From: Nitrospinota bacterium
GTDB taxonomy: Bacteria; UBA8248
Direction: 5' to 3'
Length of the DNA: 15,577 nt
NCBI GenBank assembly: GCA_046581755.1
Contig: JAYGFR010000272.1
Location: 1-15,577 of the forward strand
This document shows positions 6,153 through 11,312 of this stretch, piece by piece; within the stretch, counting starts at the first letter, position 1; each line of letters opens with the position of its first letter. Under the pieces are notes generated by a model. The model made no database searches and had not been told where the DNA came from. It saw nothing but the letters and a program-made list of their open reading frames with translations. The position numbers were made by a program, and so were the translations under genes.

Positions 6153-6965
6153 TTGACCGGGCCCCAGGAAGAATTCGCTGGCGGGAAGCTGCTGCTCCGC
6201 CGGGAGGAATCGATCGCCATCGTCACGTTCAACCATCCCGAGCGGATGAACGCCCTCGAGCTTGAGATGTGGGGAGAGCTCGCCCGCCTCGTTCCGCGCC
6301 TGGATCGGGACGAGAGCGTGCGCGTCCTGGTGTTCAAAGGGGCCGGGGACCGCGCCTTCTCCGCCGGGGCGGACATCGCCCGCTTCACCGAGGAGCGCTC
6401 GAACTCGGAGCAGGCACGTAAATACGCTGAGGGATTCCTGCCCGGCCTCGACGCCATAGGAAATTTCTCCAAGCCCACCGTTTCCTCGATCCGGGGCGCC
6501 TGCGTGGGCGGGGGGATCGAGCTCGCCGCCGCGACCGACATCCGCATCGCGGGCGAATCGAGCCGCTTCGGGGTGCCCGTGGCGAAGCTGGGCCTCGTGG
6601 CCGGATACTCCGAGCTCCGGCGCTTCGTCCAATCGATAGGGCCCGCGCGCACGCTGGACATGCTCCTGACGGCGCGCCTTTTCTCGGCCGCCGAGATGCT
6701 CGGCGCGGGATTTCTCGCCCGGGTGGTTCCGGACGATGAGGTGGAGAAAACCGCCACGGAGACCGCCGGGCGAATCGCCTCCCTCGCCCCGCTCGTCCAG
6801 CAGCTGCACAAGGAATTCGTCAAGACCATCCTCTTCGATCCCTCCCTCGCTTCGCTCACCGAGGAAGACCTCGCCAAGCAGTTCACCTGCTTCGACACCG
6901 CCGATTTCAAAGAGGGCGTGGACGCGTTCTTGACCAAGCGCGACCCGCGCTTTGAAGGGAGATAA
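6153..6965 (+). CDS. Enoyl-CoA hydratase/isomerase (crotonase superfamily), 270 aa
   Basis: VTFNHPERMNAL, AFSAGADI and CVGGGIEL oxyanion motifs, and DFKEGVDAFLTKRDPRFEG at the C-terminus. TTG 6153 follows GGAGG (6141-6145). Confidence 0.92.
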   Translation: MTGPQEEFAGGKLLLRREESIAIVTFNHPERMNALELEMWGELARLVPRLDRDESVRVLVFKGAGDRAFSAGADIARFTEERSNSEQARKYAEGFLPGLDAIGNFSKPTVSSIRGACVGGGIELAAATDIRIAGESSRFGVPVAKLGLVAGYSELRRFVQSIGPARTLDMLLTARLFSAAEMLGAGFLARVVPDDEVEKTATETAGRIASLAPLVQQLHKEFVKTILFDPSLASLTEEDLAKQFTCFDTADFKEGVDAFLTKRDPRFEGR

Positions 6966-6972
6966 GCCGCCG

Positions 6973-8175
6973 ATGATCCCGCAGCCGGGCGGTGCCCTCG
7001 AGGGCGTCCGCATTCTCGAGGTGTGCCAGATCATGGCCGGCCCGTTCTGCGGCGCCCTTCTGGGCGACATGGGGGCCGACGTCATCAAGGTCGAAAAGCC
7101 CGCCGGCGGCGACGACGCCCGCCGTATGGGCCGCTACTTCGCCGGCGGCGAGGGCTATGGCTTCATGAACCTGAACCGCAACAAGCGGAGCATCGCCCTC
7201 AACCTCAAGTCCCAAAAGGGCCGCGCCCTGCTCATCGAGCTGGCCCGGAGCGCCGACGCCCTCATCGAAAACTTCCGCCCCGGCACCATGGACCGCCTCG
7301 GCCTCGGCTACGAGGATCTCCGCAAGGCCAACTCCGGGCTGATCTACGCTTCGATCTCGGGTTACGGTCACACCGGTCCCTTCCGGGAGAAGGGCGGCTT
7401 CGACCTCGTGGCCCAGGGCCTCTCCAGCCTGATGAGCTTCACCGGCGAGCCCGGCCGCCCCCCGGTCAAGATTCCGGTTCCCCTCTGCGACCTGAACGCC
7501 GGGATATACACGGCCTTTTCCATCCTTTCCGCCTACATCCATAAACAGCGCACCGGCGAGGGACAGAAAATCGACACCTCTCTCGTGGACGCCGGCCTGG
7601 GCTACACATTCTGGCAGTCCTCCCAGTTTTTCCCCGAAGGCGAGGTTCCCGTGCCGCGCGGCTCGGCGCACGAGGTGACCGCCCCCTACCAGGCGTTTAA
7701 ATGCTCGGACGGCTACATCGTCCTGGGCGCCGCGAACCAGCCCAACTGGGAGCGCACCTGCAAAGCCATGGGCCGCGAGGATCTGATGGAGAGGGACGAA
7801 TACAAGACCGACAAGGACCGGGCGGTTAACTACCTCAAGCTCGCCGAGGAATTGGAGGAGGCGTTCGGGAGCGACACCCGCGCCAGCTGGCTCCAGCGCC
7901 TCGAGGCCGAGGGCGTGCCCTGCGGCCCCATCCTCAACATGGCTGAGACCTTCGATCATCCCCAGATCAAGGCACGCGGGATGGCCGTTGATGTGGAGCA
8001 TCCCGCAGCCGGCGCGACGCGGGTGCTCGGGTTTCCCCCCCAACTTTCCGGCACGCCCGGCATCGTTCGAAAGCCCGCGCCCACCCTGGGCCAGCACACC
8101 GACGAAGTCATGAAAGAACTCGGAAAGAGCGCCGGGGAAACCGGCCGGCTCCGGGAAGAGGGCATCGTAGGCTGA
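6973..8175 (+). CDS. Family III (CaiB/BaiF) CoA-transferase, 400 aa
   Basis: ALEGVRILE, AGPFCGALLGDMGADVIKVE, NRNKRSIALNLK, ENFRPGTMDRLGLGY, catalytic-Asp region PLCDLNAG and APTLGQHT. ATG 6973 lies 7 nt after the crotonase stop. Confidence 0.95.
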   Translation: MIPQPGGALEGVRILEVCQIMAGPFCGALLGDMGADVIKVEKPAGGDDARRMGRYFAGGEGYGFMNLNRNKRSIALNLKSQKGRALLIELARSADALIENFRPGTMDRLGLGYEDLRKANSGLIYASISGYGHTGPFREKGGFDLVAQGLSSLMSFTGEPGRPPVKIPVPLCDLNAGIYTAFSILSAYIHKQRTGEGQKIDTSLVDAGLGYTFWQSSQFFPEGEVPVPRGSAHEVTAPYQAFKCSDGYIVLGAANQPNWERTCKAMGREDLMERDEYKTDKDRAVNYLKLAEELEEAFGSDTRASWLQRLEAEGVPCGPILNMAETFDHPQIKARGMAVDVEHPAAGATRVLGFPPQLSGTPGIVRKPAPTLGQHTDEVMKELGKSAGETGRLREEGIVG

Positions 8176-8232
8176 GGGACGGACACCAGCCCGATTCGTG
8201 TTGAAGTGAACCCCCCGCCGGGAGGGCGACGG

Positions 8233-8937
8233 ATGGCGCAAGAGCCGGAAAGCCTGCCCGCCGGAATTTATCTGGTCGCCACCCCCATCGGAAACCTCGG
8301 GGACATCTCCGATCGCCAGCGGCAGATTATCGAAGCCTGCGACGTGGTGGCCTGCGAGGACACCCGCCGGACCGGGCTTCTCCTCTCCCGCCTTTCCATC
8401 AAAAAGCGGTTAATCAGCTACCACGAGCACAACGAAACCAGGCGCGCCGACCAGCTCGCCGAAAGGGCCAAGGCGGGCGAACGGATCGCGGTGGTCTCGG
8501 ACGCGGGCACGCCGGGAATTTCCGATCCTGCCTACCGGGTGGTGCGAGCGGCGCTGGACCGGGGGGTTTCTGTCGTTCCCGTGCCGGGGCCTTCGGCGGT
8601 CATGGCCGCGCTGGTGGCGTCTGGCCTTCCGACCGACCGGTTCGTGTTCGAGGGGTTTTTGCCCCAAAAGGGCGAGCGGCGCTGGCGCAGGCTGGAGGAA
8701 TTGCTCGAAGAAGATCGCACGGTGGTCCTGTTCGAATCGCCGCATCGCGCCGTCCGGCTGATCGAGGAAATATCCAAGCGCGCCCCCGCCCGGCCCCTGG
8801 TGCTGGCGCGCGAGCTCACCAAGCTGCACGAGGAATTCCTGCGCGGAACGGCCGCCGAACTCACCGAAAAATTGAAGGGAAGAACCGTCAAGGGCGAATG
8901 CGTCCTCCTGTTCGCGCCCAAGCGGTTGGAGAAATAA
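8233..8937 (+). CDS. rsmI: 16S rRNA (cytidine1402-2'-O)-methyltransferase RsmI, 234 aa
   Basis: IYLVATPIGNLGDIS, ACEDTRRT, SYHEHNE, VSDAGTPGISDP, FESPHR, RELTKLHEEF and KGECV. GGAGGG precedes ATG 8233. Confidence 0.96.
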   Translation: MAQEPESLPAGIYLVATPIGNLGDISDRQRQIIEACDVVACEDTRRTGLLLSRLSIKKRLISYHEHNETRRADQLAERAKAGERIAVVSDAGTPGISDPAYRVVRAALDRGVSVVPVPGPSAVMAALVASGLPTDRFVFEGFLPQKGERRWRRLEELLEEDRTVVLFESPHRAVRLIEEISKRAPARPLVLARELTKLHEEFLRGTAAELTEKLKGRTVKGECVLLFAPKRLEK

Positions 8938-8976
8938 TCCGGGCGGATACCCCCTGCGCCCGACCGAAAGCGGGAT

Positions 8977-10591
8977 TTACTTCCGGCGCCTCCGGCGGCT
9001 TCCTCGGCTGCGCCGCCTGCTCCGGGTCTGTTGCTGGGGCCTCGGAGGGAATTTGAAGTCGATGGCGGTCCCGAGGCACGACTTTTTCCAGCCCGCATCC
9101 CGCCATTCACCCGTATTGTTCCCGGTTTGAACCCATTTATCTCAGGTCCATTCGGTGTACCACCGCCCGGCACTGTCCTTATCTTTTTTGGGTTCGTTGA
9201 TACGAATGAGACGGAAGTCGGTAACGCCGGCTTTCGACGCGCACAATTTTTTAGAGGTTACGGCGCAGAAGCACGTATTGTCCTCGGTGCCGTTGGGATG
9301 CGGAATCAGCTGGTAGCGGAGATTGCCGCTTTTGTCTGAGGTCTTTCCGACGAGGATTTCCGTATCGAATCTGCGGATGGGAAATGGCCTTCTCCGGTTC
9401 GAATCTTTGAGGACGAACTGGAATTGCACCGTCTTGTTTTTATTTTCGAACACCCCTTCGCTGGGTTGGACTATCTCTTTGTTAACACTCAAGCCATCCC
9501 CCGCCACACCGATAACGATTCCTCTCGAATCGGTGACCTGGAACGACACCTTCCGGCCTGTCCGGATATCGACGTCCACTTTTGCGGCGGGTGCCGGCCA
9601 GGGAGGCCCGCACTGATAAATCCGGCGGGGGAGATATCCGGTCAGGGTGCGGCCTTTGTTCCCCAGGGTCCAACGAATTTTATCGCTATGCACCCTGTAC
9701 TGATATCGTATTTCCGTCCAACGGACACTGGATATTTTCGCGAGGCCCCTTCCCGTCACGAAGCGTAGGCGTCGCGAATGGCTCTCGCCACCCGCGTGGC
9801 CTTGTATCCCGCGTCTTTCAGCGCCCTCTCTGCCTGTTTTTTGCCCCGCCCGAAGGAATCTTTCAGATATCTCCCCAGCGTTATCGCCGAATTCTGGCTG
9901 GTATATCCCGCCCGGTAAATCGTCCGGGAAAAAGCGCCCGCTTTTAAATTTCCGGCAATGTATTTCAGCACGCCGATTGACCTGTTCAAGGACCACCGGA
10001 AGGTCTTCCGGCCCGCGTCCAATATCGCGTGCAGTTCCATCCTGGCTCTCTTCATGATCCGCGCGGCCCCTTTATTGCCCTGCCCCCCGGATTCTTTCAG
10101 GCACCTTAAAAGGGCCGCCGTCGACATATTCAGATTGCCCTTCGCCGTCCGGGCGATATTCTTCAGCGAGTAGCCCGCGCTTTTCAGCGCGCTCGCGATT
10201 CGGGCCTTGTTCCAGATATTGAACACGTTCTTCACGATATTCGTGGCCGGGTTCGTTGATGTGATCATTTTTTTTCGAAGGGTTTTAATCGTACTGGACG
10301 CGGAAATTTTCCACTTTTGAAAATCCTGGCGATAGAGGTCGCGCCAGCCCCGAATTTGGATTTCAACTGCCCGGCGATGTAGGGAGAGCTTTTCCCGGCG
10401 CGTCTCAAATTTTTGAACAGATCTTTTCTCGTGTGAGTGACGGCCATGCGCATTTCGGGTGCGGGGTGGATACTCTGGCCCTCGATGGTGCCCCGCGCCG
10501 TGGCCGGGCCTGGCGCCGCCATGAGAAAAATCAGGCCCGCACAAAAAAATGCCGCGAAACATTTGTTCATTCGGAAAGTCTTTTTCATCAT
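8977..10591 (-). pseudogene. Interrupted gene for an exported basic helical-repeat protein (~538 aa reconstructed; two -1 frame changes and one in-frame TGA)
   Basis: Segment A (10591-10265) carries the signal peptide MMKKTFRMNKCFAAFFCAGLIFLMAAPGPATA and the first repeats. Segment B (~10303-9756) continues the same repeats. Segment C runs ~9759-9142. Beyond TGA 9144-9142 the same frame stays open as DKWVQTGNNTGEWRDAGWKKSCLGTAIDFKFPPRPQQQTRSRRRSRGSRRRRRK to TAA 8979-8977. 1615 nt + 2 = 539 codons. Could instead be recoded or a set of coupled small genes. Confidence 0.65.
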
Positions 10592-11312
10592 CGCCGATCT
10601 CGGTGCCTTCATCGAGGGTCTGCCGGAGAAAATTCGGGGGATGGCCCGGATACGGAGAAAAGATATTTTTGACATCCTGCTCAACCGCCGGCTGATATTC
10701 CGGCAAGCCGAGAAACTCGGCGTAGGCAACCGGAAGGCCGTCTGGGATTACATCGCGTGGGCGCAGAGGGAGATTATGATTCGTGTGGTGATGAGCGATC
10801 TCAATAAAAAATGGGCGCCGACGGCCAGGGAATTGAAAGACGAGTACGAAAGGAACAAGAAAAAATTTCATCAGCTCGGCAAGGTCACCGCCTCGCACAT
10901 CATGGTGGTCTCGGAAAAAGAGGCCAAGGAGCTTTTCGAGAAGCTGAAAAAAGGGGCGAATTTCGCGAAATTGGCAAAGAAATATTCGATGGCCCCGGAG
11001 CGCCAGATGGGGGGGAGCCTCGGAGCGATGACCCGGGGCCAGCACCGGACGACCGGCCTTCCGGCCATCATCGAGGAAACGGCGTTTTCATTAAAGGCGG
11101 GATCGTTTAGCGGCGTCGTGCGGAGCCAGTTCGGATGGCACATCGTTTATACGTCCCAAAAAGAAAAGGTGCGCCAGCTATCCTTCAAGGAGGTTCATAA
11201 ATCCATCGAGGAGAGCCTGGGAAAATCGAAGCGGGCCCGCCGGTTGGAGGCCCTGCTGGCCAAACTATCGGCCGAATACAAGGTTATAAAATATCCCGAC
11301 CGGATTCCCTGA
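10590..11312 (+). CDS. PrsA/PpiC-type (parvulin) peptidyl-prolyl isomerase, apparently 5'-truncated
   Basis: VTASHIMV, GANFAKLAKKYS, GGSLG, AFSLKAGSFSGVVRSQFGWHIV and LSFKEVHKSI. The foldase-like N-domain begins at IADLGAFIEGLP (10590). There is no signal peptide or convincing start; in-frame candidates are GTG 10437 and ATG 10446, 10485, 10521 and 10641. Confidence 0.85.
   Translation: MADLGAFIEGLPEKIRGMARIRRKDIFDILLNRRLIFRQAEKLGVGNRKAVWDYIAWAQREIMIRVVMSDLNKKWAPTARELKDEYERNKKKFHQLGKVTASHIMVVSEKEAKELFEKLKKGANFAKLAKKYSMAPERQMGGSLGAMTRGQHRTTGLPAIIEETAFSLKAGSFSGVVRSQFGWHIVYTSQKEKVRQLSFKEVHKSIEESLGKSKRARRLEALLAKLSAEYKVIKYPDRIP

Follow-up and report, generated by a model that had tools for sequence, protein, structure and literature searches.

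A probable polymorphic pseudogene of a species-restricted, likely secreted 483-residue protein in an uncultured marine bacterium

Frameshift and nonsense pseudogenes that arise under relaxed selection form a general class in bacteria, and the locus described here resembles this class in that out-of-frame stops come into play through the loss of single bases, further lesions build up, and independent assemblies share identical lesions. It departs from the class in two respects: an intact or nearly intact allele persists in the same marine population, making the loss polymorphic and not fixed, and the gene is without a known family. Two other described systems show partial likenesses. The programmed -1 frameshifts of dnaX and of IS3-family elements share with this locus a -1 relation between reading frames and an A_AAA_AAA heptamer beside a stop codon. 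Contingency genes typically encode exported products, and the tracts at which they undergo slippage are usually 7-8 or more bases long.

The window analysed here is a complete contig of 15,577 bases from a metagenome-assembled genome (MAG) of 400 contigs and 4.2 Mb. On its minus strand lie four frames that an earlier note had read as a single hidden gene for an exported repeat protein of about 538 residues, split at three UGA codons. Re-reading the sequence gave the same frames, coordinates and stops. Frame A (10591-10265, 108 aa), which has a signal-peptide-like N-terminus, frame B (10268-9756, 170 aa) and frame C (9759-9142, 205 aa) each end in TGA, and segment D (8977..9141) stays open in frame for 54 codons after the last of these, up to a TAA at 8979-8977. 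Both changes of frame are indeed -1, and both stops overlap a start codon of the following frame: the premature TGA of frame A (10265..10267, minus strand), directly after a run of eight A (A8, 10275-10268), overlaps the ATG at 10268-10266, and the premature TGA of frame B (9756..9758, minus strand) overlaps the GTG at 9759-9757. Restoring the two missing bases to the window sequence yields a single frame of 483 codons that ends at the TGA at 9144-9142. The whole broken gene, delimited from the frames, the fused B+C proteins and the joined alleles described below, thereby occupies 9142..10591 on the minus strand (483 codons plus TGA) and specifies, in order, a signal peptide, a helical repeat region and a β-rich, Cys/Trp-containing C-terminal domain. 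The predicted Sec signal peptide (10496..10591, minus strand) opens with basic residues, continues as a hydrophobic core and then reads PGPATA ahead of RG; it was judged by eye on the n-, h- and c-region pattern of the translation, without a predictor.

That A, B and C are pieces of one gene is shown by natural alleles in which both junctions are read through. Searching with B among longer proteins returned P0003, which is unbroken from B into C. The 90% cluster of this protein has 16 members, 15 of them listed, and the following counts cover those listed: B and C are fused as ...DAYGFVTGRG... in five (P0003, P0005, P0014, P0015 and P0017), the broken form is represented by three (P0012, P0007 and the window's own protein, P0002) and seven do not reach the junction. 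P0012 comes from a different contig, carries three residue changes and likewise ends in DAYAS, while P0007 begins at the GTG of C. The window's exact B/C sequence is also found in L006, a separate metagenome contig, with 4 differences over 1171 bases. Two more diverged alleles, represented by P0009 and P0010 on short contigs, end in ...DSAGQGHPEWT and not in ...DSAGRWYTEWT, a clustered change near the C-terminus. In the annotations of gene callers, B (170 aa) and C (with 205 or 183 aa) stand as separate genes, and the residue changes that P0012 shares with the X3 allele, described below, tell us that B's ATG is taken as the start even in alleles with an open frame upstream of it. An exact look-up of four possible gene calls for A gave zero matches in the database and no longer protein that contains A came up when one was sought, so that A has evidently never been called as a gene.

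Public metagenomes bring both junctions into view. The stretch was found in 20 listed runs from 13 studies, labelled as marine, seawater, vent or seep metagenomes, and the contigs of eight runs were compared with it; run X2 placed no contig on it, which is not evidence that the stretch is absent there. The resulting allele data are those of assembled contigs, in which within-sample mixtures cannot show, and allele frames were rebuilt by script from the listed differences. Contigs bridging position 9763 are window-type in four of six cases (X1, X3, X5 and X6) and have an extra base in the other two (X7 and X10); across 10308-10312, four of five bridging contigs have an extra base (X3, X5, X7 and X10) and one is window-type (X1). 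On its listed differences only, the X7 allele has no stop between the ATG at 10591 and the point where its contig breaks off, 377 codons on: the reconstruction omits the 6 of 25 differences that are unlisted, among which a stop may be hidden, and the contig ends at 9460, short of the 3' end of the gene. The X10 allele is a single 483-codon frame apart from a TGG>TGA change at 10212 (2 of its 35 differences are unlisted). In the X3 allele A and B are fused (278 aa) and B/C is broken, and in both X3 and X5 the B/C lesion is the only one. The stretch across the fusion of A and B (...FKSGGISASSTIKTLRKK...) carries the repeat motif on from both sides. Of the single gene that had been proposed, then, the joining of A, B and C holds, with 483 residues in the intact form in place of about 538 and with no support for segment D.

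Comparison with the intact alleles also locates the lesions themselves. At the A/B lesion (10307..10312, minus strand) the window has GGAAAA where X3, X5, X7 and X10 have GGGGGAA; set against the window, the contigs differ by T10309C, T10310C and a C inserted behind 10310 or 10308, and the GGGGGAA form, one base longer, puts frames A and B together. The B/C lesion (9763..9764, minus strand) is the absence of one G relative to the intact alleles, with a C inserted behind 9763 in X7 and X10, and changes TAC GGC TTC GTG (...DAYGFVTG...) to TAC GCT TCG TGA. The window form of the B/C lesion recurs in L006, X1, X3, X5 and X6, and the window's A/B state recurs in X1. Since the lesions are situated upstream of the stop/start overlaps, by about 40 nt from the ATGA and by 5 nt from the GTGA, the overlaps are coincidental by-products and not, as had been supposed, the sites of the breaks.

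We considered whether the fragments might be anything other than the remains of a damaged gene. That A, B and C could be three separate genes, translationally coupled through the ATGA and GTGA overlaps, is suggested by the existence of those overlaps and by the callers' annotating B and C apart. However, the presence of all three in one frame in natural alleles largely refutes it, and the idea is further opposed by the repeat motif that crosses the A/B junction, by the replacement of B's ATG with CTG in X10 (10268 T>G), by the lack of signal peptides in B and C as separate products, and by the callers' use of B's ATG in alleles that are open upstream; contradicted by the fused alleles, coupled fragments are a very improbable reading. 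Less probable again, and close to negligible, is an assembly or sequencing error in the MAG contig that conceals an intact gene. In its favour, the source genome is a MAG in 400 contigs, but neither lesion site is a long homopolymer, and the identical B/C lesion occurs in L006 and in contigs of four runs from four studies, with the identical A/B state in X1; recurring as they do in independent assemblies, the lesions are therefore not assembly errors. Reversible on/off phase variation of an exported protein, through slipped-strand changes at short G runs, is slightly better placed than either and still most unlikely. Both lesions are single-base changes in the length of G runs (an intact G5 at A/B, GG against G at B/C), on and off forms coexist between runs, and the product would be exported, as is typical for contingency genes. 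Against this, the tracts measure 2 and 5 bases, well under the usual slippage size, with no long repeat tract at the locus; the A/B site has two further substitutions (GGAAAA against GGGGGAA) and so is not a simple change of length; the lesions travel with linked SNP haplotypes; and the locus also carries irreversible damage in the form of a nonsense codon and an 830-bp deletion. No evidence in support of the phase variation raised in the earlier note was found.

Another way to obtain the full protein from the broken gene would be recoding, by programmed -1 frameshifting or transcript slippage at the A8 run, by reading UGA as selenocysteine, or by both. The A_AAA_AAA heptamer at the end of frame A, with the stop immediately after it, speaks for this, and could give slight -1 slippage. 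Such slippage would leave the B/C break unrescued, that break having no slippery heptamer. The departures from dnaX and the IS3 family are correspondingly plain, in that the true A/B lesion is about 40 nt upstream of the heptamer, the second break is without a slippery site, no downstream structure is present and the shift is absent from some alleles. The 73 nt after each of the three TGAs fold no better than shuffled sequences (z +0.04, -0.41 and +0.26), a SECIS-like hairpin looked for after the TGAs was not found, and Rfam gave nothing there at gathering thresholds; with the limit relaxed to E 5, a snoRNA match attributable to chance (E 4.6) was all that appeared. There is no Cys motif beside the in-frame TGA; the UGA of X10 aligns with Trp, and the two upstream UGAs are out of frame in the intact alleles. 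The A run is interrupted in X10 (10272 T>A), recoding is not called for in the intact alleles, and the lesions differ from allele to allele. That all internal stops are TGA had been offered as a signal in itself, yet 7 of the 14 large window ORFs checked end in TGA (the peptidyl-prolyl isomerase (PPIase) gene among them, with an end that aligns with its orthologues), so three TGAs are to be expected in G+C-rich DNA. Recoding to give nested isoforms, put forward as an alternative to decay, is set aside by the variation of the breakpoints between alleles; we rate recoding of any kind as extremely unlikely, and the three UGAs here carry no recoding signal.

The composition of the variable sites indicates that the frames were once under constraint. 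The 43 listed variable sites in the gene comprise 19 synonymous, 22 residue-changing and 2 stop-giving changes, one of the last (10477) co-occurring with a change at 10476 that makes the codon TGG instead of a stop. The set omits 17 rows and all figures rest on the sites listed, among which 44% are synonymous against 30% expected when the 33 of 43 transitions are allowed for (P = 0.03), and codon position 3 accounts for 21 of the 43 (P = 0.025). Frames A, B and C thus bear a modest but real mark of purifying selection in the past.

Two further lesions were found at the locus. In the X10 allele, whose frame is otherwise intact, a Trp codon has become TGA (10212..10214, minus strand). In X1 and X6, contigs from two studies join 10348 directly to 11179, an 830-bp deletion (10349..11178) beyond whose edge the sequence matches 11179-11208 with 1 mismatch; an 8-bp sequence, GCGCCAGC, is present at both edges, and the deletion takes out the start of the gene, its signal peptide and most of the PPIase gene. 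The undeleted form is also there in both runs, at lower contig depth. Altogether the locus carries four different inactivating lesions, counting the X10 nonsense codon. We consider it very probable that the window gene is a polymorphic pseudogene of a species-restricted, likely secreted 483-residue protein, disabled by two single-base deletions, and the discovery of intact or differently broken alleles bears out decay as the simplest reading, as had been proposed. The alleles would form a series from intact, through the B/C frameshift and the addition of the A/B frameshift, to the addition of the deletion in X1, with the window allele at a late stage. The three TGAs would then be two out-of-frame stops exposed by the deletions together with the normal stop, and the window strain would make at most a 108-residue secreted stub. 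Two observations count against simple decay, namely the occurrence of the B/C frameshift on several diverged haplotypes and in several studies, and the continued predominance of synonymous changes in the core of B (10227 to 9831), where there are 10 against 4 other changes, one of these being the X10 nonsense codon; the A+B product of X3- and X5-type alleles, or even the pieces, might therefore still be used.

What is left of the expectation that this locus might hold an undescribed system is an orphan family. No assignment of A, B, C, D or fused B+C came from Pfam, NCBIfam, PHROGs or PADLOC, a sequence search of the PDB gave chance matches only (E 0.039 and 0.75), and the decapeptide repeat region PF25296 reached 13.2 bits (E 0.083), below its cut-off of 45. 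Among 40 relatives B had no match (0/40) and C had three chance-level matches (E 4e-4 or weaker), two of them with in-frame stops; 50 other genomes of the phylum gave no credible match, and viral contigs gave none to the gene or to a related locus. An exhaustive phmmer search of C against 1.84 billion representatives returned zero matches, in a set from which C's own cluster is absent too and close kin may have been left out. Related loci were confined to one short metagenome contig, with none in species genomes. Judged by these sequence searches, the gene is restricted to the species and falls in no known family.

Some likenesses to known proteins can nevertheless be traced. The helical region consists of degenerate repeats of about 14 residues of the LK-x-AGY type and is followed by the β-rich Cys/Trp domain of ~205 aa. 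The C-terminus of P0004 (1759 aa, labelled at source as a methyl-accepting chemotaxis protein) is an array of 14-residue 'ALK-x-AGY-xxx-QIA' repeats, to which segment B is similar in several registers at 27-35% identity, a weak likeness (E 9.5e-3 database-wide); the repeats here differ in being degenerate, and no curated family covers them. For the C domain, the nearest language-model neighbours are all clusters of β-trefoil families, ricin-type lectins (PF14200 and PF00652) among them, at 0.87-0.89, but these scores are under the tool's 0.9 line, with 93-105 of 256 features in common, and no Pfam match appears at E 10. An AlphaFold model of fused B+C from an 11-row alignment (mean pLDDT 30, pTM 0.18) is too poor to use; its secondary structure is helical over B, with short strands over C. 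Our best guess, guided by weak language-model leads, is that the original role would have been that of a binding protein, either secreted or on the cell surface, whose C-terminal domain may have been lectin-like.

Segment D had been taken as an Arg-rich tail of the protein. All 15 listed cluster members end in ...EWT, at the TGA at 9142..9144 (minus strand) that we regard as the normal stop, though a gene caller would stop at that TGA in any case, and Pfam found no family on D read through from C. D is most likely non-coding 3' flank between convergent genes. Folding of this flank gave z scores of -0.07 and +0.37, with no Rfam family and no tRNA; it did not align with the congeners' spacer between rsmI and the PPIase gene, and promoter and terminator scans found sites no more numerous than in shuffled sequence. 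Zero variable sites are listed in 8938-9214, with five strains covering, where the gene's rate would predict about 8.6. L006 shows the same lack of variation on the rsmI side, down to 8759. The pattern is most simply read as diversity that has risen within the decaying gene and not as diversity that has fallen in D. Contigs from an RNA library (run X20) cover only 8938-9178. The invariance of 8938-9214 and the X20 coverage may reflect low core-genome diversity plus carry-over of DNA in the RNA library.

The gene lies in a 1.65-kb island (8938..10583) that is absent from congeners. In G001, G002 and G004, rsmI is directly followed by an intact PPIase gene with a signal peptide; in the window, rsmI (8206-8937; TIGR00096, 2.7e-71) is convergent with the orphan gene, and the PpiC-type PPIase (10584..11312, plus strand) is divergent from it, shows homology only from residue 45 of its orthologues and is without signal peptide and linker. 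A search for mobile-element ends around the island found only short chance repeats. We rejected the idea that an inverted copy of the signal peptide lost from the PPIase had become that of the orphan gene, there being no protein match and a DNA local score of 24 against a shuffle maximum of 26. The long form of the PPIase ORF (10437-11312, plus strand) begins with 49 codons that are antisense to its neighbour's signal peptide. The PPIase has 57% identity to the G001 copy, against 80% between G001 and G002, RsmI being conserved at 79-84%, and in its 5' part five of the seven listed variable sites alter the amino acid; decay seems to be under way in this gene as well. In the congener G003 the PPIase gene is split over two contig ends (L017 1-600 and L010 1-270), both with IS5-like transposase fragments, and there too it is therefore interrupted by an insertion sequence, which makes the rsmI-PPIase locus look susceptible to damage throughout the genus. 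The G+C fraction is 0.54-0.56 over 9000-11300, which takes in the orphan gene and the PPIase, against 0.64-0.66 on either side. Elsewhere in the window, a 444-aa ORF (6907-8241, minus strand) has no Pfam match at E up to 0.1 and overlaps a 407-aa ORF on the opposite strand.

A more active version of the loss can also be envisaged, in which the gene has been knocked out repeatedly and independently across ocean populations, with selection acting against display of the protein, for example as a target of phage or grazers, and the truncated secreted A+B form kept as a working variant. We think this unlikely; if true, repeated knock-out with a retained A+B form would make this a natural contingency locus without repeat tracts. 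Under the decay that we favour, the breakage of one gene accounts for two annotation artefacts: the separate small genes, and the extension of the PPIase ORF antisense to the signal peptide. The intact allele could merit expression, for the study of the exported proteins of this lineage. The locus would provide a small, clean case of gene loss in progress in an uncultured marine bacterium, in which intact, frameshifted, nonsense and deleted alleles coexist.
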